A DNA stretch of 64,000 nt from Bacteroidia bacterium (GCA_030654175.1 JAURXZ010000030.1:653510-717509); one strand, 5' to 3'. Positions 3,377 through 45,827 are shown, counted from the stretch's first letter. The notes: a model not told the origin generated them from the sequence alone. Program-made: numbers and translations.

Positions 3377-5455
3377 TTAAACTCTTACCCCAAATAAACA
3401 AACATCATCTACTTGTTCTAAAGAGCCTTTCCATTGTATGAAATTTTTTTTATAAATTTCTTTTTGATCCTTCAACAATAAATGGTTATTCGCTAAAATC
3501 AAATCTTCAAGTTGTTTGTACTTGAATTTTTTTCCTTTAGGGCCGCCAAACTGATCGACATAACCATCGGAATAAATGTAAATGCTGTCTCCTTTTTGCA
3601 ATTGTATTTCATGATTTGTGAAAGGGCGACTTTCAGGGTAATAACCAATTGGCTGTTTATCAGCCTTTATTTCTTCTAACTTTCCATTTCTAATAAGGTT
3701 GAGTGCATTATTGGCTCCAGCCCATTGCAATTCATTGGTTTTAAGATTTAGTTTACACAGGGAAATATCCATCCCGTCTTTGCTGCCGCCCTCTTCCCCG
3801 GTTTGTCGTAATTCTTTAATGACTTTATCGCGTAACCGATTAAGAATTTCGGCAGAGCTTAATAATTCTTCCGAAGAAATAATGTCATTAAGGAAAGATA
3901 TGCTAAGCATACTCATTATCGCACCAGGGACACCGTGGCCGGTACAATCAACAGCTGCAAAGTACCAATACTGTTGTTTTTCAGCTCCCCAATAAAAATC
4001 TCCGCTTACAATATCCTTTGGCATAAAAAGAATAAAATGCTCAGGCAGATGCATGCTTGTATGCTCTTCGTCTCTCAGTAATGCGCTCTGTATTTGTTTA
4101 GCATAATGGATACTGTCTGTGATGTCTTTATTTTTTTCTTCAATTATTTTTTTTTGAAGTTCGGTTTCGGCACTCTTGCTTTCAATTAGTTGTTTTTGTC
4201 TGCGAGTAATACGAAGTGTACGGAAAATAAAACCAGCGAACAATACCACTAATAAAAAACCAAAAGCAACAAAAAATATGATCATTTTTTGTTTTTGACT
4301 TTTTGCTTCTGCAACAGCTTGTTGTTTTCTGTTTTTTGCTTTTAATTCCTCTTCTTTTTTATCAAACTCATTATTCATCTCCTCGAGTTCAAGATTTTTT
4401 TTGAATTCGCTGCTAAAAATCAGATCTTCAATTGCAATATAATGTTGATAGTAATATATTGAACGCAAGCGCATTTGTTCCATATTTAGCAGTTCTCCGC
4501 CCACGCTATCAAGCAAAGGGATATTTGAACTTTCATAGAGGTTGCTTAAAGCCAAAAAAAGAGTTTTTTCTTCAACTTTTGCTCCCGTCTTTTTATTTAT
4601 TGCGAGTGCATTGTATAGATAATCGTAAGCTTTTCCGTAATTTTTTTGTTTAGTATAAATGGAGCCTATATAGACGAGCGTATTTGCTGTTTCCATTTCA
4701 TTGCCCAATTCTCTCTTCATATTTAATGCCCTAAAAGAATATTCTAATGCTTTAGGGTAATCTCCCGTACTTTCATATATGTTTCCTATAATATCAAGAG
4801 TCCTTGCTATGCTATTATTATTTCCGAGTTCTTCCTTAATCTTTAATGACTTCAAAGAGTAGTAAATCGCCTGGTGAAAATCGTGCATAGACAAATAAAC
4901 TCCTGCGATGTTATGCATAACAGCTGCAGCTAAGTTTTTATCATTTTGTTCTTGAGCCAAATTCAAAGCCTTGAAATAATAGTCTAATGCTCTGGGGTAA
5001 TTTAGTTGAAAAGCATAAGCAATCCCAATATTACAGAAGTTTTTGCTGATGCTTTTTTTGTTGCCGATTTCTTCATTAAGCTTTAATGCTTTTAAGGTAA
5101 AATCAAGTGCTCGCGGAAAGTCTGCTTTGTTCAAATGATAAACTCCAAGATTACCATAAGTATTTGCAAGCAGCGCAAATTTCCTTTTTCCTTTAATCGA
5201 GTTCAGGTGATTAATTATTTCAAGCGCCTGATTGCCCAGTAAAATTGAACTATCTAGGTTTTGATACATCAAAGCCCAGCCCAGGTCATTAAGGTGATTT
5301 ACCTTGCTAGAGTCTTCTTTGTCTTTTTTGAGAAGCGTTATCAGTGTGTCGATGTTTTTGTTTTGGGCAAATGAAGCCCCGCCCCAACCTTCTCCAAAGC
5401 GGAGGAAGAGTGAAAAAAGAATAAAAAGAAAAGAAATTTTATGATTGTATTTCAT
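3377..5455 (-). CDS. TPR / TM / PP2C (SpoIIE-type) phosphatase, paralog of 1142..3358
   Basis: 692 aa with identical architecture. The phosphatase domain is near-identical to its neighbour (SGDFYWGAEKQQYWYFAAVDCTGHGVPGAIMSML). The 4-nt ATGA overlaps the downstream ABM gene. Confidence 0.85.
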   Translation of the reverse strand: MKYNHKISFLFILFSLFLRFGEGWGGASFAQNKNIDTLITLLKKDKEDSSKVNHLNDLGWALMYQNLDSSILLGNQALEIINHLNSIKGKRKFALLANTYGNLGVYHLNKADFPRALDFTLKALKLNEEIGNKKSISKNFCNIGIAYAFQLNYPRALDYYFKALNLAQEQNDKNLAAAVMHNIAGVYLSMHDFHQAIYYSLKSLKIKEELGNNNSIARTLDIIGNIYESTGDYPKALEYSFRALNMKRELGNEMETANTLVYIGSIYTKQKNYGKAYDYLYNALAINKKTGAKVEEKTLFLALSNLYESSNIPLLDSVGGELLNMEQMRLRSIYYYQHYIAIEDLIFSSEFKKNLELEEMNNEFDKKEEELKAKNRKQQAVAEAKSQKQKMIIFFVAFGFLLVVLFAGFIFRTLRITRRQKQLIESKSAETELQKKIIEEKNKDITDSIHYAKQIQSALLRDEEHTSMHLPEHFILFMPKDIVSGDFYWGAEKQQYWYFAAVDCTGHGVPGAIMSMLSISFLNDIISSEELLSSAEILNRLRDKVIKELRQTGEEGGSKDGMDISLCKLNLKTNELQWAGANNALNLIRNGKLEEIKADKQPIGYYPESRPFTNHEIQLQKGDSIYIYSDGYVDQFGGPKGKKFKYKQLEDLILANNHLLLKDQKEIYKKNFIQWKGSLEQVDDVCLFGVRV

Positions 5456-5843: not shown

Positions 5844-5983
5844 TAAAATTAACTATAAAAGTTTTGCTTCTATTCAGGAGCGCACCTCTATAAAACTTCT
5901 AAAAAAACAAACTGTTCCAAAGTTCCAAACTATGGAAATGTTCATCAACAAATTTGATTGCGTGAGGGGTTGTAGCGAAAATC

Positions 5984-6011
5984 CTTCTCCTCGCCTTTTA
6001 GCGAGGAGAAG
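5984..6011 (-). terminator. GC-rich hairpin (cttctcctcgc / gcgaggagaag) followed on the minus strand by a T-rich tract; candidate terminator of the A2M gene
   Basis: 11-bp stem and 6-nt loop read directly from sequence, ~120 nt downstream of the A2M stop on the minus strand. Confidence 0.5.
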
Positions 6012-6126
6012 ATTGAAGCGGAAAGCCAGACCCGCAGCACAGCGAAGGGGCACGCCCTAATAAATCCAATAATAAAAAACGTTTTTACAAAACCTGTTCA
6101 GCAGAACTATATCATTTTACAACAAA

Positions 6127-23876: not shown

Positions 23877-24687
23877 AAATCAGTTTCATAAGCTCTTTCA
23901 TAATTAATGTCATCTTTTTCTCGGCCTGTGCGGCCACATGTTGAACCTCTTCGTGGGTTACCTGAACAATTTTGCCCGGTACCCCTAAATCAGTAATGAT
24001 TGACATCGCGAAACAAGGAATTCCCATGTGTCGTGCAACAATTACTTCGGGCACAGTACTCATTCCAACAGCATCTGCTCCAACGTTAAAAACATATTTG
24101 TATTCGGCAGGTGTTTCAAATGTTGGGCCTGTTAGGCCTGCATAAACACCTTCCTGCACTTTTATGTTATTTGCCGAAGCCACTTGCTTTGCTTTATCAA
24201 TAAGGTCTTTATTATACGCATCGCTCATATCCGGGAAACGTGGTCCAAGTTCAGCCATATTTTTACCTATCAATGGATTGGATGGAAAAAGGTTAATATG
24301 ATCGTTGATGATCATCAGATCACCAATTTCGAAATTCGGATTAACACCACCGGAAGCATTGGAAACAAAAAGTTTTTGAATGCCTAAAAATTTCATCACC
24401 CTTACCGGAAAGGTAACCTGTTGCATATCATATCCTTCATAAAAATGAAAACGCCCTTGCATGGCAACCACGTTCTTTCCACCTAACTCACCAAAGATCA
24501 GTTTACCTGTATGGCCTTCTACCGTTGAAACAGGGAAGTTCGGGATCTCTTCGTAAGGAATGGTATGTTTAATATTTATTTCCTTTACCAGGCCACCAAG
24601 TCCGGTACCCAAAATAATTCCAATTTCCGGCTCAATGGATATTTTACTTTTAATGTACGCTGCTGTTGTTTTGATTTGTTCTAACAT
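23875..24687 (-). CDS. Purine nucleoside phosphorylase (PNP family 1, PunA/inosine-guanosine type)
   Basis: 270 aa with family signature ([49 protein letters not shown]). Confidence 0.85.
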
Positions 24688-25738
24688 AATGTAAAATTTG
24701 TTCGTTAAATTCGTTTTTGTCCTTTTCGTAAAAATCTATTTCAATTGGCATATAAAAAAGCGGCATGTGGCTTAAAATGTCTGAAAAATCAGGGTTTCTT
24801 AAACGCATTGCATCTTTTTCGGTGGTCACTATTATTTTATTTGACGATGCAATATTATCAAATATTTTTTTAACTTCTTCTAAATCATTTTTTGTGAACG
24901 TATGATGGTCCCGAAACTTAACAGGAATAAGGGTTTTTACTTTATCTTTTAAATAATATTCCAGAGATTGAGTATTGGCTATTCCGGTAAGCAGGACAAC
25001 GGAATAATGTCTTTCAAAATAATATTCTTTACTAAACGGGTTAATCGTTTGGGCATGCAAAGGAAGGAAGTCACCATATTTAATATATGAAAAATAAATA
25101 TGCTGATGCGGTAATGGCTTGATCTCCTTTGTTAAACGATTACGTTCAATTGGTAAAAGCACTTCCGGACACTTGGTAACAATAATAATATCGGCACGTT
25201 TTATTCCCGAACCAAATTCCCGCAAACTTCCTGTAGGCATTACAAAATCGTTGAAATACAATTTATCGAACTCGGTTAAAACAATTGACAACCCCGGTTT
25301 TATTGCCCTGTGCTGAAAAGCATCATCCAATAAAATGGTTTGTACCATCGGGAAAAGGTTTACTATCTTTTTTACGCCTCTCACCCGTTTCGCATCCACA
25401 GCAACATGTACATTACTAAATTTAACGGCAAACTGAAGTGGTTCATCACCAATATCGGCAACTGTAGATTGTGCATTCGCTAAAACAAAACCTTTGGTTT
25501 TTCTTCCATAACCACGGCTGAGTGTGGCTAAGTAAAACTCCGGACTTAATAAACGGATTAAATATTCGATATGTGGTGTTTTCCCTGTGCCACCAACAGT
25601 CAGGTTCCCCACAGAAATATTGAGGACCTTAAATTCGGTAGAAGAAAATATCCCCCAATCATATAATTTATTGCGCATAGAGAGCAACAGGCCATATAAG
25701 AGTGAAACAGGAAAAAGTAGTATGCGCAAAAATTTCAT
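24650..25738 (-). CDS. lpxK: Tetraacyldisaccharide 4'-kinase (lipid A biosynthesis)
   Basis: 362 aa with P-loop [22 protein letters not shown] and overall LpxK similarity. The 3' end overlaps the PNP gene start by 38 nt. Confidence 0.85.
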
Positions 25739-25765
25739 TGGCTAAAAGTACGAATATTAATGTAT

Positions 25766-26064
25766 CGATGTGCTGATGTGCTGATTCCTGATGAGATAAT
25801 GTGCTAAATTTTTGATGTGCTAATGTGCTGATTAGTTGATGTGCTGATGAACCAGTGAACAAAATTTTAATGTACAACATACTAATGACTAAGATGATGC
25901 GTAGATGTGCTGATTAGTTGACTTTCCAGTCACTGATTAGCTCTTTTCTCACAAATTCTGAAATCAAATTTATGCCAACTAAATCGTTATATTTGTACAT
26001 TGCTAATCAGTACATCAACTAATCAGCACATTAGCACATTAGCACATCGGTAAATCAGCACATT
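25766..26064. repeat. Composite repeat filling the lpxK/DUF3109 divergent intergenic region. Tandem TGTGCTGAT-type units form a left arm (25766-25850), a right arm (26001-26064) is their reverse complement, and a partial middle copy lies at 25903-25922.
   Basis: Left arm cgatgtgctgatgtgctgattcctgatgag...tgatgtgctaatgtgctgattagttgatgtgctgatg. Right arm aatcagtacatcaactaatcagcacattagcacattagcacatcggtaaatcagcacatt. The right arm ends 6 nt before the DUF3109 ATG. Confidence 0.7.
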
Positions 26065-26070
26065 AAAATT

Positions 26071-26637
26071 ATGATAGCAATAGATAATACAATAGTTTCG
26101 GAGCATTTGCTTGAAAAAAAATTCGTGTGTGATTTGAATGCATGCAAAGGAGAATGTTGCGTAGCCGGTGATTCGGGTGCTCCGCTTGAACTGGAAGAGA
26201 TCGCGATAATGGAAGACCTGCTGGATAAGGTAAAACCCTACCTGCCTAAGGATGGACTTAAATCGATTGAAAAACAAGGTGTTTTTGTGATCGATGAGGA
26301 TGGAGATTATACAACTCCATTAGTAAAAGGCAAGCACTGCGCTTTCACCTATTTTGAAAATGATATTGCTAAATGTGCTATTGAAAAAGCCTATTATGCA
26401 GGTGATATCACCTGGAAAAAGCCTATTTCCTGCCATTTATACCCTGTACGCATCACTAAATACAAGGATTACGATGCAGTAAACTTCCACAGCTGGGAGG
26501 TATGCAAACCGGCATGTGAATGCGGAGCTAAGCTGGATGTACCGGTATATAAATTTTTGCGCGAACCATTGATCCGTAAATACGGTGAAGATTGGTACAA
26601 ACAATTGGAATTTGCTGATAAAATAAAAAAGGCATAG
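26071..26637 (+). CDS. Cys-rich conserved hypothetical protein (DUF3109-like)
   Basis: 188 aa with CDLNACKGECC and further Cys (C...C...CKPACEC). Matches my recollection of Bacteroidetes DUF3109 proteins; family assignment not verified. Confidence 0.55.
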   Translation: MIAIDNTIVSEHLLEKKFVCDLNACKGECCVAGDSGAPLELEEIAIMEDLLDKVKPYLPKDGLKSIEKQGVFVIDEDGDYTTPLVKGKHCAFTYFENDIAKCAIEKAYYAGDITWKKPISCHLYPVRITKYKDYDAVNFHSWEVCKPACECGAKLDVPVYKFLREPLIRKYGEDWYKQLEFADKIKKA

Positions 26638-31372: not shown

Positions 31373-31552
31373 GTAGGCGCTAAGCTGAAGCGTTGCAAGT
31401 GTGTGAGGGCTTAGTGACGTTTTGTAACAGGTAAGCTGTGCTTACAATCCCAATATTTAATTCGAAGACAAAGTTTACTATGTTTGAAGTACTGTGTATG
31501 GTAAGCACAGCTTACCTGTTAAGATAGTCACTAAGCGCAGCTTAGCGCCTAC
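31373..31552. repeat. REP-like nested foldback. Outer inverted repeat is gtaggcgctaagctg / cagcttagcgcctac; inner is taacaggtaagctgtgcttac / gtaagcacagcttacctgtta.
   Basis: Read directly, immediately upstream of the transposase gene. Arm copies recur at 32231-32287, 33865-33882 and 34436-34504. Confidence 0.75.
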
Positions 31553-31671
31553 ATACACCATACACATACCTACACATACATAGTAAATCAAATCCAAAAA
31601 ATAAAGTTACTGTTGAATTTAAAAACAATACCAATTGTTTTGTTTATTTTTAAAATTAAATTCACAAAAGA

Positions 31672-32205
31672 ATGTCAGAAAAATATAAAACACATAGTGA
31701 TGGTTTATACTTTGTTAGCTTTAGTGTTGTAGGCTGGATCGATGTTTTTACAAGAAGAGAATATCAGGAAATTTTGGTGGATAGTATTTCGTATTGTCAA
31801 CAACACAAAAACCTTAAAATTTATTGTTATTGTGTTATGCCAAGTCATGTTCATTTTATAACGTATTCTGAAAATGGCGAAATATCAAATGTTTTAAGAG
31901 ATTTAAAATCATTTACTGCTAAACAAATAATAAAGGCAATAGAAGAAAACCCTACAGAAAGCAGAAAAGAATGGATGTTAAATAAGTTTGAGTATCATGG
32001 AAAAAACAGTCCTCAAAAACAAAAGATGCAATTCTGGAAACATGATAATCATCCATTTTTTTTATATAGCAATAAAATGATCCAGCAAAAAGTGGATTAT
32101 ATTCATAACAACCCTGTTGAAGCAGGTTTTGTTAACGACCCTAAAGAGTGGCGGTTGAGCAGCGCTAATGAACAAAGCCCGATAAAATTGGATGAACGCA
32201 TTTAG
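31672..32205 (+). mobile_element. IS200/IS605-family HuH tyrosine transposase (Y1 / REP-associated RAYT-like TnpA)
   Basis: 177 aa. HuH motif in CVMPSHVHFI and size/organisation typical of RAYT. Flanked on both sides by copies of the same palindromic repeat ending ...cactaagcgcagcttagcgcctac (31524-31552 and 32263-32287). Confidence 0.7.
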
Positions 32206-32230: not shown

Positions 32231-32287
32231 GTATGGTATTCATAACTTACCAATTAAGGATATCACTAAGCGCAGCTTAGCGCCTAC
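32231..32287. repeat. Degenerate copy of the right arm of the REP-like foldback, downstream of the RAYT gene
   Basis: gtatggta...cttacc..ttaagga tatcactaagcgcagcttagcgcctac aligns to 31496-31552 with an internal deletion. Confidence 0.65.
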
Positions 32288-32353
32288 GCGAGTATACTAA
32301 ACTAAACAAAAAAGAGTTTTCTACCAATACAGTCAAAACAGAGGTTACAAACA

Positions 32354-32920
32354 ATGGATATGGATCTGATCACTTTTCTAAAGAGTCTCACTACTATCGT
32401 ACCCCAAACAGAAGCAGAAATACACAAAGTGTTTTTTGCCGAACAATTGCCCAAAGGCCACAAACTTCACGAAGAAGGTGAAGTCTGTAATCAATTATTT
32501 TACATTGAAAGTGGTTTATCGCGCACCTTTTATTTTAATGAAGAGGGGAAAGACATTACCTACCGCTTTAATGGAGAAAACACCTTTACTTCACTCATAG
32601 AAAGCTATTACGATCACAAACCAAGCTTTTATACAATTGAATTGCTTGAGGATGCTGTTGTGCACACTGCACCATTCCCTGAATTTGAAAAACTCCTGGA
32701 AAAACACCCTGAACTGATGAAAGTTTATAACCATGTACTGCGCAATTTTGTTCTTCAATCCAATGAACGAATTGTTGCACTTCAGTTTCACAATGCACAG
32801 GAACGCTACCAAATGTTTGTCGACAAAAACCCGCACCTTCTTCAACGGGCGTCATTGGGCCATATCGCTTCTTACCTTGGCATTACACAGGAAACATTAA
32901 GTCGTATCCGCTCAAAATAA
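32354..32920 (+). CDS. Crp/Fnr-family transcriptional regulator (cNMP-binding domain + C-terminal HTH)
   Basis: 188 aa. Beta-roll region (GEVCNQLFYIESGLSRTFYFNEEGKDITY) and HTH ASLGHIASYLGITQETLSRIRSK. Confidence 0.8.
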   Translation: MDMDLITFLKSLTTIVPQTEAEIHKVFFAEQLPKGHKLHEEGEVCNQLFYIESGLSRTFYFNEEGKDITYRFNGENTFTSLIESYYDHKPSFYTIELLEDAVVHTAPFPEFEKLLEKHPELMKVYNHVLRNFVLQSNERIVALQFHNAQERYQMFVDKNPHLLQRASLGHIASYLGITQETLSRIRSK

Positions 32921-36388: not shown

Positions 36389-36826
36389 GTTATACCGTTA
36401 ATAAAAGCAGTTGACAAGTCCAATTTTTAGTTTATTATCATCATAAAAATCATTATCCGGAAGGATTAGAAAAAAATAATTCTGAACTATCGGACTTGAA
36501 ACGTAAGAAATATTCCAAGTAGGATGGAACAATTTCGACTCAAATGTTTTTTATTCACCGGAAAAAAAACACCCTTCCGCACAGAAAGCCATTCACTCTC
36601 GCTTTTTTGTAATTTTTGCAATCGCCCTTACCAGTGGATGATTTAGACAAGTCTGCATAAATTATATCCAATTACAAACGCTTACAAACAGGTATATCCG
36701 TATATAAACACTTACGAACCGAATCAGGAATGCCGATCTCCACACCTTTGCATCGTCAAAAAACAGCAAACCGTTTTATTGATAACGATATTAAAAACAG
36801 TATTAACAACTAAAAAAACAAAAACC

Positions 36827-37168
36827 ATGAATGCATTACGTAACAAAGTACAATTGATCGGTAACTTAGGAATGGCTCCGGAGATCAAAACATTAGAGAG
36901 CGGAAGAAAACTGGCAAAAATGAGTATTGCCACAAATGAATCGTATAAAAACGCGAAAGGCGAACTTGTAAAAGAAACACAATGGCATAACCTTATTGCC
37001 TGGGGTAAAACTGCAGAGATCATCGAAAAATACCTGAAAAAAGGAAGCGAAGTTGCCATTGATGGAAAACTGATCAACAGAAATTATAACGATAAGGATG
37101 GCGTAAAGCGATATGTAACCGAAATTGAAGTGAATGAAGTGCTTCTAATTGGTGGAAATAAAGCCTAG
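36827..37168 (+). CDS. ssb: Single-stranded DNA-binding protein (OB fold), copy 1 of a tandem duplication; lacks acidic C-terminal tail
   Basis: MNALRNKVQLIGNLGMAPEIKTLESGRKLAKMSIATNESYKNAKGELVKETQWHNLIAWGKTAEIIEKYLKKGSEVAIDGKL is an SSB OB-fold. Start placed at 36827 to match copy 2; the ORF-track start 36779 adds 16 residues. Confidence 0.8.
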   Translation: MNALRNKVQLIGNLGMAPEIKTLESGRKLAKMSIATNESYKNAKGELVKETQWHNLIAWGKTAEIIEKYLKKGSEVAIDGKLINRNYNDKDGVKRYVTEIEVNEVLLIGGNKA

Positions 37169-37224
37169 TCAATTAAAAAATTTCAAAAAAATAAAAAAAA
37201 ATTAACAATTAAAAAACAAAAACC

Positions 37225-37563
37225 ATGAATGCATTACGTAACAAAGTACAATTGATCGGTAACTTAGGAATGGCTCCGGAGATCAAAACATTAGAGAGCG
37301 GAAGAAAGCTGGCAAAAATGAGCATTGCCACACATGAATCCTATAAAAACGCGAAGGGCGAACTTGTAAAAGAAACACAATGGCATAACCTTATTGCCTG
37401 GGGCAAAACCGCAGATATCATCGAAAAATATTTGAAAAAAGGCAGCGAAGTTGCTATTGATGGAAAACTGATCAACAGTAATTATACCGATAAGGATGGC
37501 GTAAAGCGATATGTAACCGAAATTGAGGTGAATGAAGTACTGATTTTGGGCGGAAAAGAATGA
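37225..37563 (+). CDS. ssb: Single-stranded DNA-binding protein, copy 2 (near-identical to copy 1); lacks acidic C-terminal tail
   Basis: 112 aa, ~93% identical to copy 1. The upstream 17 nt (aaaaaacaaaaaccatg) is also duplicated; repeat unit 398 bp. Confidence 0.8.
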   Translation: MNALRNKVQLIGNLGMAPEIKTLESGRKLAKMSIATHESYKNAKGELVKETQWHNLIAWGKTADIIEKYLKKGSEVAIDGKLINSNYTDKDGVKRYVTEIEVNEVLILGGKE

Positions 37564-37584
37564 ACCAAACTAATTATTTTTTAA

Positions 37585-42583: not shown

Positions 42584-42835
42584 TTGCAGCAGGCAATTTT
42601 ATACCCGGTAATTGCAAAAAGTTAATCTCTGTTTTTTTATTGATATATTTTAAAGAAAAGTTAATTATTATCCAACACTTCTAATTTTTTGTTAATTGCT
42701 TACTTCAAAATTGTTTAATTCTATCATTTGCCTACTGCAAAATTGCTCAAATTGTAATATTTGCCTACTGTAAAATTGCTTAATTGTTTAATTGTAATAT
42801 TTGCCTACTGACCTAATGCAAAATTGCCTACTGGT
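42584..42835. repeat. Cluster of TTGCCTACTG(c/t)AAAATTGC-type short repeats between the GNAT gene and lysC
   Basis: Four direct copies (42728, 42762, 42802, 42826), including two ~40-bp tandem units aattgtaatatttgcctactg, plus an inverted imperfect copy gcagcaggcaa at 42586-42596. Confidence 0.6.
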
Positions 42836-43322
42836 AATTTAGTATTTGTTCCTTGGTCAACTTACAGTTGATCCATTCTTTATCTAAGTTTGAATTTATT
42901 TTTTCGTAAAACCGGATTGCCGGTTCATTCCATTCCAATACCTGCCATTCCAACCTCTGAACATTCTTTTCTTTCGAGACCTTTACGACTTCATCAAATA
43001 GTTTTTTCCCAACACCCTGTTTTCTGTACTGTTCGGTCACAATTATATCTTCCAGGAAAATACATTTGCCTTTCCAGGTAGAATACTTCACATAATAGAG
43101 GGAGATGCCTACAATTTCGCCCTCCACCTCAGCAACAAAAAAATAAAAAACAGGATCTTCACCAAACCCATCCCTTTCCATGTCTTCAGTGGTAACAATT
43201 ACTTCGTCAGGCGCATTTTCATATAAAGCCAACTCTTTTATTAATCCCAAAGCCGCTGACAAGTCTGATTTAACTCCTTTTCTTACTGAAATAGTCATAC
43301 GTACATGTTTTTTTAACTTCAA
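42828..43322 (-). CDS. GNAT-family N-acetyltransferase
   Basis: 164 aa with acetyl-CoA binding motif RKQGVGKKLF. Confidence 0.75.
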   Translation of the reverse strand: MKLKKHVRMTISVRKGVKSDLSAALGLIKELALYENAPDEVIVTTEDMERDGFGEDPVFYFFVAEVEGEIVGISLYYVKYSTWKGKCIFLEDIIVTEQYRKQGVGKKLFDEVVKVSKEKNVQRLEWQVLEWNEPAIRFYEKINSNLDKEWINCKLTKEQILNYQ

Positions 43323-44551: not shown

Positions 44552-44590
44552 GCAGTAGGCAATTATTCAATTTGAACAATTGCCTACTGC
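44552..44590 (+). terminator. 13-bp perfect hairpin gcagtaggcaatt / aattgcctactgc built from the TTGCCTACTGC repeat; candidate terminator after fbp
   Basis: Read directly 18 nt after the fbp stop. The loop is 13 nt and the downstream tract is only weakly T-rich. Confidence 0.5.
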
Positions 44591-44636
44591 CCAATTGTGA
44601 AATTGTAAAATTTATTTCTTTTAATCGTTTTTTAAT

Positions 44637-45827
44637 ATGAAAACAATTGACAATTATAATTTCAAGGGAAAAAGAGCTGTAGTTCGTGTTGATTTTAACG
44701 TGCCGCTCGATGCCCAATACAACATTACTGACGACACCAGGATCACTGCTGCTACGCCTACCATCAAAAAGATACTAAATGATGGTGGTTCTGTTATTTT
44801 AATGTCACACTTAGGAAGGCCTAAAGAGGGCCCCGAAGAAAAATTCTCGTTAAAACACATTGTACCGCATTTAAGTAAATTATTAAATACTCCTGTATCA
44901 TTTGCCCCCGACTGTATTGGTGCAGAAGCCAAATCAATGGCAAAAGCGCTTAAACCGGGTGAAGTGCTTTTATTAGAAAACCTGCGTTTTTATAAACAAG
45001 AAACAGCAGGTACAGAATCCTTTGCCCATGAACTGGCTTCACTGGGCGATGTATTTGTTAATGATGCTTTTGGCACAGCGCATCGTGCACATGCATCAAC
45101 TACTATCATTGCAAAATTTTTTCCTAACGATAAAGTGTTCGGCTATGTAATGGCCAACGAAATTGCAAACATCAATAAGGTATTGAACAAATCAGAGAAA
45201 CCATTTACTGCTATTATGGGTGGGGCAAAGGTTTCCGGTAAAATTTTAATTATTGATAAGCTACTGGATAAAATTGATAATCTTATTATCGGTGGAGGAA
45301 TGGCCTATACATTTATTAAAGCTCAAGGCGGAAAAGTGGGTAGCTCCTTAGTGGAAGAAGACAAACTGGACATTGCTTTAAAAATAATAAAAGATGCAAA
45401 AGCAAAAGGTGTAAATATTTTTATTCCCGTTGATACTGTTGCCGCTTCTGCTTTTTCAAACGATGCAAACAAACAAACTGTTGATATCAACGCCATACCT
45501 GATGGCTTTATGGGTTTAGATATTGGCCCTGAATCAGAAAAAATATTTGCTGAAGTAATTTACAATTCAAAAACTATTTTATGGAACGGCCCAATGGGTG
45601 TTTTTGAAATGGACAATTTTGAGCATGGCACCAAAGCCATTGCTGAAGCCATTGTTGTGGCCACAAAAAAAGGTGCGTATTCTTTAATTGGCGGAGGCGA
45701 TTCTGTTGCAGCTATCAATAAATATAATCTTGTGAATGATGTTAGTTATGTATCTACTGGTGGCGGGGCATTACTTGAATATATTGAAAGTGGGAATTTG
45801 CCGGGGGTACAGGCGATAGAAGAATAA
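44637..45827 (+). CDS. pgk: Phosphoglycerate kinase
   Basis: 396 aa with [15 protein letters not shown]-terminal motif and C-terminal GGGDS...STGGGA. Confidence 0.9.

Follow-up and report, generated by a model that had tools for sequence, protein, structure and literature searches.

The 64,000-nt stretch of Bacteroidia bacterium DNA analyzed here (GCA_030654175.1, JAURXZ010000030.1:653510-717509; hereafter the window) contains two divergent genes whose spacer is filled by a short tandem repeat. The left gene is lpxK (24650-25738, minus strand; Pfam PF02606, E = 3.9e-72), encoding tetraacyldisaccharide-1-P 4'-kinase, and the right gene encodes a DUF3109 protein of the Rv0495c family (26071-26637, plus strand; Pfam PF11307, E = 4.7e-79). 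The 332-bp spacer between them (25739-26070) is mostly made of an 8-nt unit, GATGTGCT/AATGTGCT, which reads ATCAGCAC on the opposite strand and has the consensus ATYAGCAC. A preliminary description of the same DNA had taken the region for a long inverted repeat built from 9-bp units, which could be a hairpin, a set of regulator binding sites, or the footprint of a miniature inverted-repeat transposable element (MITE).

The period was determined with Tandem Repeats Finder (TRF) and a lag-autocorrelation scan, both of which gave 8 and not 9; the 9-mers noted before (such as tgtgctgat) overlap by one base. At period 8, TRF reported 25767-25849 with 10.5 copies and 26025-26065, the latter reaching 25997 at period 16. 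According to the autocorrelation scan, the two spacer arrays were the sole strongly 8-periodic DNA within the 64 kb, and shuffled sequences gave none. All 10 copies of ATGTGCTRAT in the window fell inside 25768-26063, compared with a shuffle expectation of 0.36, and TGTGCTGATTAGTTGA occurred three times against 0.04 expected. Neither (ATCANNNN)4 nor any generic array of period 8 turned up when the rest of the 64-kb window was scanned. With 10.5 and about 8 copies, the head-to-tail iteration exceeds chance, as in long simple sequence repeats.

The left array (25767-25849, minus strand) has about ten units, one of them of 7 nt, which read ATCAGCAC ATCAACTA ATCAGCAC ATTAGCAC ATCAAAAA TTTAGCAC ATTATCTC ATCAGGA ATCAGCAC ATCAGCAC in the sense of lpxK. 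The right array (26003-26065, plus strand, with its start at 25997 or 26003) has eight units, ATCAGTAC ATCAACTA ATCAGCAC ATTAGCAC ATTAGCAC ATCGGTAA ATCAGCAC ATTAAAAT, and ends 5 nt before the DUF3109 ATG by its coordinates, or a single base before it in the unit parsing (ATTAAAAT-T-ATG). The gap between the left array and the lpxK ATG is 28 nt, again in sense orientation. This gap is part of a segment, ctaaaagtacgaatattaatgtatcgatgtgctgat (25739-25777, minus strand), that is invariant in four genomes: alignment columns 3-39 were unchanged across the window and the relatives L123, L122, and L001. Read on the minus strand it keeps the 8-nt register (ATCGATAC ATTAATAT TCGTACTT TTAGCCA-ATG); the 28 nt are degenerate as a repeat and highly conserved as a sequence. 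A 17-nt partial copy, TCAACTAATCAGCACAT, lies between the arrays on the minus strand (25905-25921). Both arrays and this middle copy were found where the preliminary description had placed them.

The same description had flagged a 70-aa open reading frame (ORF; 25668-25880, minus strand) as an artifact of the repeat. It had no Pfam match, and its counterpart is 25 aa long in L123 and absent in L122. The ORF exists because the A/C-rich array units hold few stop codons; we regard it as spurious, and it should not be annotated. Searching the spacer against Rfam in E-value mode gave chance snoRNA-like matches only and no Rfam family, and a scan of the spacer for sigma-70 promoters and terminators was uninformative, the host phylum being Bacteroidota.

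The window belongs to an uncultured bacterium of the phylum Bacteroidota; its nearest matches were metagenome-assembled genomes labeled 'Bacteroidia bacterium', and an exact-match look-up of its LpxK protein gave no entry. Every genome with the divergent lpxK/DUF3109 synteny carried octamer arrays in identical orientation (L123, L122, and L255, and the left side in L001), with 2-10 units on the left and 8 to about 16 on the right, while the flanking genes of these relatives showed 80-94% nucleotide identity. L123, at about 94% nucleotide identity to the window and with flanking genes 92-96% identical, has three left and nine right units with ATCATCTC variants. L122, at about 80%, has two left and 12 right units with ATCAACTC/ATCAAAAC variants, and L255, at 88% protein identity, has TTGNTAAT four times on the left and about 16 units (ATTTTCAA/ATTAGCAC/ATTAACAC) on the right. 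In L001 (about 94% nucleotide identity) a left array of three units is present and duplicated, and the right array is replaced by a GC-rich element of about 640 bp. The length polymorphism thus comes in whole units (left: 10 in the window, 3 in L123 and L001, 2 in L122; right: 8, 9, and 12), and the unit itself drifts at the orthologous locus, from ATCAGCAC through ATCAACTC/ATCATCTC to ATTTTCAA. Relatives in which DUF3109 has other upstream neighbors (NAD kinase, GlyRS, OprB) had no arrays. The check on a MITE that the preliminary description had proposed, namely whether orthologous spacers lack the repeat, was therefore answered in two ways, with arrays in the spacers of the same synteny and none in relatives of other synteny.

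The element in L001 (about 666-1305) is MITE-like, with long terminal inverted repeats ggcgtgccccttcgggtcgggctt ... aagcccgacccgcttggggaacgcc, and no copies of it were found in the 64-kb window. GC-rich, MITE-like DNA also sits where the right array would be in L253/L254 (1-258; 93% protein identity), and the spacer looks like an insertion hotspot. Two related contigs stop near the spacer. In L122, a TTG-start ORF (3616-4293, minus strand) lengthens DUF3109 by 37 residues (MYTGKSVHQLISTSTNQHINTSKHQLISTSTHQHIKT-), a false N-terminal extension made possible by an A/C-rich array that is in frame and has no stop codons.

The pairing of inverted arms that had been described was confirmed. The best inverted repeat joins 25815-25848 and 26006-26039, two arms of 34 nt with 97% complementarity that are separated by 157 nt, and the middle copy (25905-25921) is complementary to 26015-26031 at 17 of 17 positions. 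Folded as a single RNA, the whole spacer reached -122.1 kcal/mol (z = -9.8). The spacers of relatives folded far more weakly (z = -4.1 and -4.5), and they fold at all because any array pairs with any inverted array that shares its unit; the arms of L122 and L123 are unequal and in different registers. A four-unit block is common to both window arms with 31/32 matches (P = 0.002, unit permutation), and the equivalent comparison in L123 gave 25/32 (P = 0.71). The alignment revealed a 55-nt insertion in the left arm of the window, consisting of seven units, one of 7 nt, which is absent from L123, L001, and L122 and accounts for the block shared with the right arm. Since the block ATCAGTAC-ATCAACTA is also present in the right arm of L122, the right-arm copy appears to be ancestral and the left-arm copy derived. 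Judging from this alignment, the long near-perfect inverted repeat is recent and limited to the window lineage.

When each arm is read toward its own gene, the sense is A/C-rich and G-poor in both, (ATCAGCAC/ATTAGCAC/ATCAACTA)n or (ATYAGCAC)n. The sense leaders contain no ATG, GTG, or TTG in 68 nt on the DUF3109 side or in 118 nt on the lpxK side; in the reversed orientation they would hold 10 and 17 start codons, respectively. Alone, neither arm was more structured than its shuffles (right arm, minimum free energy -4.7 kcal/mol, z = +0.3; left arm, -8.8 kcal/mol, z = +1.3), and the orthologous leaders folded alone gave z = +2.5 and -0.4. Promoters of Bacteroides and Flavobacterium share the Bacteroidetes -7 box consensus TAnnTTTG. 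A match, TATATTTG, lies directly 5' of the right array on the plus strand (25988-25995) and points toward DUF3109; L123 and L122 have the box (TACATTTG) at the equivalent place, and in array-free relatives TATCTTTG precedes the DUF3109 ATG by 4-26 nt. Toward lpxK, a weaker candidate box, TAAATTTG, is found at 25965-25972 on the minus strand; an exact TAnnTTTG was not found on the lpxK strand of L123 or L122. As predicted from the promoter box, the right array is most likely an expanded DUF3109 5' leader, and the left array would lie within the lpxK leader or directly upstream of it. Since a conserved -7 box stands between the arms, the two arms would be carried by separate divergent transcripts.

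The octamer family was then followed beyond the window. A metagenome scan with ATCAGCACATNNNNNNATCAGCACAT returned at least 120 contigs, with GC contents mostly of 34-52%. The listed contigs (L133-L252) gave 127 arrays; the figures in this and the following three paragraphs hold among the matches listed. Units varied around ATYANCAC. The ATG of a long ORF lay within 11 nt downstream of 24 arrays in sense orientation and of five in antisense, and the 10 starts right after arrays that were tested were exact database protein starts. Five of 10 clusters carried organism names, all of them from Bacteroidota (Chitinophagaceae, Bacteroidales, Bacteroidia). The genes downstream of the arrays were unrelated housekeeping genes, including rfbC, nrdA, fmt, fabF, accC, panB, pth, ung, folA, and others. 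Arrays differed between related contigs whose flanks were 87-97% identical.

For the 103 arrays with both flanks available, an inverted partner was present upstream in 32 and downstream in none, so that about 31% of the octamer arrays were in inverted pairs and about 70% were unpaired. The sole type of pair was 5'-(GTGCTGAT)n...(ATCAGCAC)m-3', with the G/T-rich arm first (32:0). Pairs most commonly filled a complete co-directional spacer, starting 1-9 nt past the stop codon and ending 0-9 nt short of the next ATG (12/31 pairs, or 18/31 with both strands counted, by the crude ORF calls), and the divergent context of the window was rare on the same calls (2/31). The order of units was not mirrored between the paired arms (22 pairs; 0.849 observed versus 0.849 permuted), a result at odds with a general origin of the pairs by inverted duplication or by selection to preserve hairpins.

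Tandem periods in the listed contigs were concentrated at 7 nt (33 regions) and 8 nt (107 regions), with 0-5 regions at other lags except for the doubled periods of 14 and 16 nt and for lag 15 (10 regions). Contigs carrying the ATCAGCAC family were also rich in GGTTGTC/GACAACC, GACAGTT, TCAAATCT, CGAATAA, GACTGTAC, and others, and these 7- or 8-nt arrays were often in inverted pairs as well, with the G/T-rich arm first in eight of eight. With about 15% of spacers being convergent, a polarity of 40/40 goes only mildly beyond what the start-codon filter discussed below would give.

Viral contigs were scanned with three tandem copies of TGTGCTRA. The G/T-arm-first polarity held in about 46 of 46 pairs, and the matches included phage contigs of 17-37 kb, each with several arrays, that carry genes for HNH, TerS, TerL, portal, protease, and capsid. 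The phage contigs in IMG/VR were mostly from sample 3300045988 (L002, L010, L015, L016, L026, L029, L034, L057, and L066; also L024). The GC content of these contigs, sampled in L010, is about 52%. Their arrays are polar inverted octamers, TGTGCTAA/TGTGGTAA ... TTAGCACA/TTATCACA, and fill the spacers of co-directional structural genes; in L010 these include the TerS/TerL and portal/protease spacers. Megablast of one viral contig rich in repeats found no nucleotide match among GenBank phages. An origin of replication was also considered for such arrays, the unit TTATCACA resembling the DnaA box TTATCCACA; this candidate was rejected, as the GC skew had no sustained switch and each contig has arrays at many loci.

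Membership of a widespread octamer family, hypervariability between strains, and persistence at the locus in relatives are observed directly. We consider it probable that the spacer feature consists of two ATYAGCAC octanucleotide simple-sequence arrays, one beside each divergent gene, with the long inverted repeat as a by-product. Such arrays would arise and change through replication slippage in whole 8-nt units, and copying between inverted arrays, by template switching or gene conversion, would recently have given the window lineage its 34-nt near-perfect inverted repeat. The right array would be transcribed as the DUF3109 5' leader from the conserved -7 box and the left array would belong to the lpxK leader or immediately precede it; with the arms on different RNAs, the long hairpin would be a by-product. 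The orientation may be set by a selective filter. Translation initiation in Bacteroidota is independent of the Shine-Dalgarno (SD) sequence (established; e.g., PMC9976891), and because open leaders are needed for it, only the start-codon-free, unstructured A/C-rich orientation would be tolerated beside a start codon. Applied to two divergent genes, this filter would automatically produce an inverted repeat, and the same filter would yield the polarity in co-directional and divergent spacers, which are the majority of spacers. The arrays would lengthen leaders, with modest tuning of expression at most.

Several observations weigh against this explanation. The start sites used in it derive from the consensus box alone, and an exact -7 box was not enriched upstream of arrays across the family (5 of 117 arrays versus 3-4 per control flank); consequently, the array as a leader just after a promoter was rejected as a general rule. 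Arrays are kept on both sides of the spacer down to about 80% nucleotide identity, which is beyond the expectation of pure neutrality, and several arrays in each compact phage genome are likewise unexpected under it. The polarity also appeared in about five apparently convergent contexts (crude ORF calls), where the start-codon filter should be inactive. The middle copy fits the right-arm variant of its own genome both in the window and in L123 (16/16 there), a match that could stem from selection for pairing and not from gene conversion. The 8-nt step has no account in this explanation. Locus persistence, phage arrays, convergent polarity, and the middle-copy match leave room for function.

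One candidate is a functional role of the RNA, which we think rather unlikely. The A/C-rich arrays would then serve as an iterated pad for a general binder of single-stranded RNA, such as ribosomal protein S1, a cold-shock protein (Csp), or an RNA recognition motif (RRM) protein, the putative ligands proposed for (AUCAGCAC)n, and would aid or regulate SD-independent translation; in pairs between co-directional genes, a stem with the G/U arm would bring the upstream stop beside the downstream start and keep translational coupling. The sense bias of array ends close to confirmed starts, the frequent stop-to-ATG pairs, their recurrence in phages such as at TerS-TerL in L010, and the retention of arrays at lpxK/DUF3109 in four lineages all fit this proposal, and MacGregor proposed binding of S1, Csp, or CsrA for analogous TAACTGA arrays (PMC4679880). 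However, the unit is poorly conserved beyond the leading AT, arrays also occur upstream of promoters and after stop codons, close relatives among L124-L132 and L253-L259 lack them, the downstream genes have no functional theme, and the unit order of paired arms is not mirrored. The broader proposal that ATYAGCAC arrays are a Bacteroidota-wide, phage-shared cis-element for SD-independent expression, tuned by 8-nt slippage, seems to us quite unlikely; it would combine an open A/C pad before starts with a paired stem running from the stop through G/U arm, loop, and A/C arm to the AUG, which would keep the genes translationally coupled or provide a site for processing. It is improbable that co-transcribed arms form a long hairpin with a regulatory or processing role in the mRNA of lpxK or DUF3109 (an RNase III site, stabilizer, or attenuator). 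The preliminary description expected such a hairpin in either transcript, and the pairing potential it saw is real: the window spacer folds at -122 kcal/mol, the relatives also beat their shuffles, and the middle copy pairs without a mismatch with the right arm, through variants specific to each genome, in the window as in L123. Its placement on one transcript is unlikely, given the conserved -7 box between the arms and the unstructured state of each arm alone. Moreover, pairing is automatic for any array and an inverted array of the same unit, the arms are very unequal in relatives (2 versus 12 units in L122, 3 versus 9 in L123; z about -4), L001 and L253 have no right arm, and the long stem is a derived state of the window lineage only.

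It is very improbable that the arrays are operators for a cooperative ribbon-helix-helix protein with an 8-bp period that co-regulates lpxK and DUF3109, perhaps by promoter looping. The 8-bp period, the direct and inverted layout around divergent promoters, and the retained presence of arrays at the locus are compatible with it, and we take the spacer arrays to resemble the MetJ met-box and ParG/parH operators. Yet the unit drifts between orthologous loci (ATCAGCAC to ATTTTCAA), the family recurs in phages and in the spacers of over 100 unrelated gene pairs, its arrays abut stop and start codons and are not centered on promoters, and no such regulator was present among the nine Pfam-scanned genes within 8 kb on each side. 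With the unit drifting and the arrays preceding many unrelated housekeeping genes, the earlier suggestion of iterated sites for a dedicated sequence-specific regulator was not supported, and a general RNA-binding factor for the arrays remains a candidate. We also hold it highly unlikely that the spacer is a mobile palindromic element, either a MITE or an element like a REPIN (a doublet of repetitive extragenic palindromic, REP, sequences) that is mobilized by a Y1 enzyme like the REP-associated tyrosine transposase (RAYT) encoded at a distance of 5.6 kb and has octamer terminal inverted repeats, which would account for the fixed polarity. In its favor are the strict pair polarity, the filling of spacers as by REPs and bacterial interspersed mosaic elements (BIMEs), the RAYT gene at 31672-32205, and the insertion hotspot seen in L001 and L253. 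Against it, the window has no second copy within its 64 kb; no conserved non-repeat core, termini, or target-site duplication was noticed, although no systematic search was made; no direct duplication was seen at the outer edges of the arms (duplications were not searched systematically), and no empty-site allele in relatives. The metagenome copies share the repeat unit only, without a conserved interior, arrays vary by whole units like simple-sequence repeats, most are unpaired, the arm order is not mirrored, and the REP at the flanks of the RAYT, CACTAAGCGCAGCTTAGCGCCTAC, is a different sequence unrelated to the octamer. The MITE footprint of the preliminary description found no support in the 64 kb. 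An invertible promoter (inverton) between lpxK and DUF3109, with the arms as its inverted repeats, is barely conceivable: 34-nt arms of 97% complementarity do surround a 157-bp segment with promoter-like boxes on both strands, but this segment is collinear between the window and L123 and keeps its orientation, no recombinase was found among the ORFs of at least 130 aa scanned over 12.6-36.4 kb (all but one 134-aa ORF), the sole transposase-like match in that region was the RAYT, both genes are housekeeping genes, and the family lies mostly between co-directional genes.

Among known repeat systems, the octamer arrays fit the class of long simple sequence repeats. As summarized from Mrazek et al. 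(2007) in PMC4679880, these have units of 5-11 nt and are phylogenetically patchy, mostly intergenic, and hypervariable, with polymerase slippage as the attributed cause. Like them and the cyanobacterial short tandemly repeated repetitive (STRR) heptamers, the octamer arrays are imperfect head-to-tail repeats, mostly intergenic and strain-variable, with many unit types per genome; unlike the classic period-7 repeats, they have a period of 8, occur in Bacteroidota and presumed phages, and show a strict inverted-pair polarity. TAACTGA heptamer arrays, the nearest published analogue, lie just upstream of starts in Beggiatoaceae, Cyanobacteria, and five Bacteroidetes, and translational regulation was suggested for them (MacGregor 2015, PMC4679880). 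The octamers share with them the forward orientation a few nucleotides before the starts of unrelated, often essential genes, the occasional reversed array after a stop, and the shorter repeat-free spacers of close relatives. They differ in unit and period, and in that about 31% of the octamer arrays are in inverted pairs, compared with one indirect repeat (PMC4679880). The window arrays are forward, intergenic, and near a start but do not share the unit, and we would class them as an analogue of the TAACTGA class and not as a member.

The GGGAATC/GGGGAYT heptamer arrays of Xanthomonas and Nostoc are intergenic, G-rich, and form G-quadruplexes (Rehm et al. 2015, PMC4692102). Like them, the octamers are near ORF ends, kept at loci in related species, and variable in length and sequence, and some inverted array pairs are also known in Nostoc; unlike them, the octamers are not G-rich. 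REPs, by definition, are imperfect palindromes whose 5' tetranucleotide is conserved. The octamer pairs resemble REP, BIME, and REPIN sequences in being short extragenic palindromic DNA after genes with a fixed arm polarity, and a RAYT is 5.6 kb away, but they are tandem octamers, mostly unpaired, and this RAYT has different REPs. The AGAT repeats in the 5' untranslated region of Moraxella catarrhalis uspA2, a surface-protein contingency locus, alter expression with copy number, according to the account in PMC4679880. The window likewise has a tandem repeat of strain-variable copy number between a promoter (predicted here) and a start; however, lpxK and DUF3109 are housekeeping genes, and the copy-number effect has been demonstrated for uspA2 only. 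A survey found 6-9-bp repeats enriched in some prokaryotic phyla and a high repeat density in Bacteroidota (PMC12699852). Searching the accessible literature for the octamer strings and for octanucleotide repeats in Bacteroidota gave nothing specific. With its strict pair polarity in both Bacteroidota and phages, the octamer family appears to be an undescribed variant of long simple sequence repeats, while the lpxK/DUF3109 locus itself is an ordinary member of that repeat class.

Other features of the window were recorded alongside. The RAYT (177 aa, 31672-32205, plus strand) matched NCBIfam NF047646 with 100.8 bits against a cutoff of 80. Its flanks (31373-31553 and 32264-32288) carry two identical direct copies of the REP-like palindrome CACTAAGCGCAGCTTAGCGCCTAC; a partial copy in inverted orientation lies upstream, and a long hairpin spans about 31427-31518. 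This REP was not found elsewhere in the window and is unrelated to the octamer arrays, and a link between the arrays and the neighboring RAYT was rejected since the flanking REPs are different. A protein with a cNMP-binding domain is encoded 6.3 kb from the spacer (32354-32920), and a neighboring peptidase carries a type IX secretion system (T9SS) sorting domain. A second intergenic repeat family (42690-42838 and 44558-44615) consists of 8/16-nt pieces (AATTGCCTACTGCAAAATTGCTTAATTGTAA...) with TRF periods of 33 and 40; it contains the inverted pair GCAGTAGGCAATT...AATTGCCTACTGC, after which comes AATTGTGAAATTGTAAAATTT, some 25 nt upstream of the ATG at 44637. A Flavo-1 RNA (5955-6036, plus strand; RF01705, 53.7 bits against a gathering threshold of 42) was the sole Rfam family above threshold in the window. 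At 36802-37573, a 398-nt unit is tandemly duplicated (1.9 copies, 90% identity) with an ATG-led, coding-like start, and probably represents two tandem paralogous small genes.

At the locus itself, the analysis removes a tempting over-interpretation, as neither a MITE nor a dedicated operator nor a conserved hairpin of the riboswitch kind is supported for the inverted repeat. For annotation, arrays of this kind give rise to spurious ORFs and, as L122 shows, to N-terminal extensions; they probably break assemblies too. The octamer family extends over at least 120 metagenomic contigs and dozens of viral contigs, and those contigs that could be named all belong to Bacteroidota. It follows three regularities, an 8-nt period, an A/C-rich strand facing starts, and a strict polarity of inverted pairs, a description of which was not found in the searchable literature. 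If the arrays affect translation, they would offer a simple natural handle on leaders in a phylum without Shine-Dalgarno recognition.

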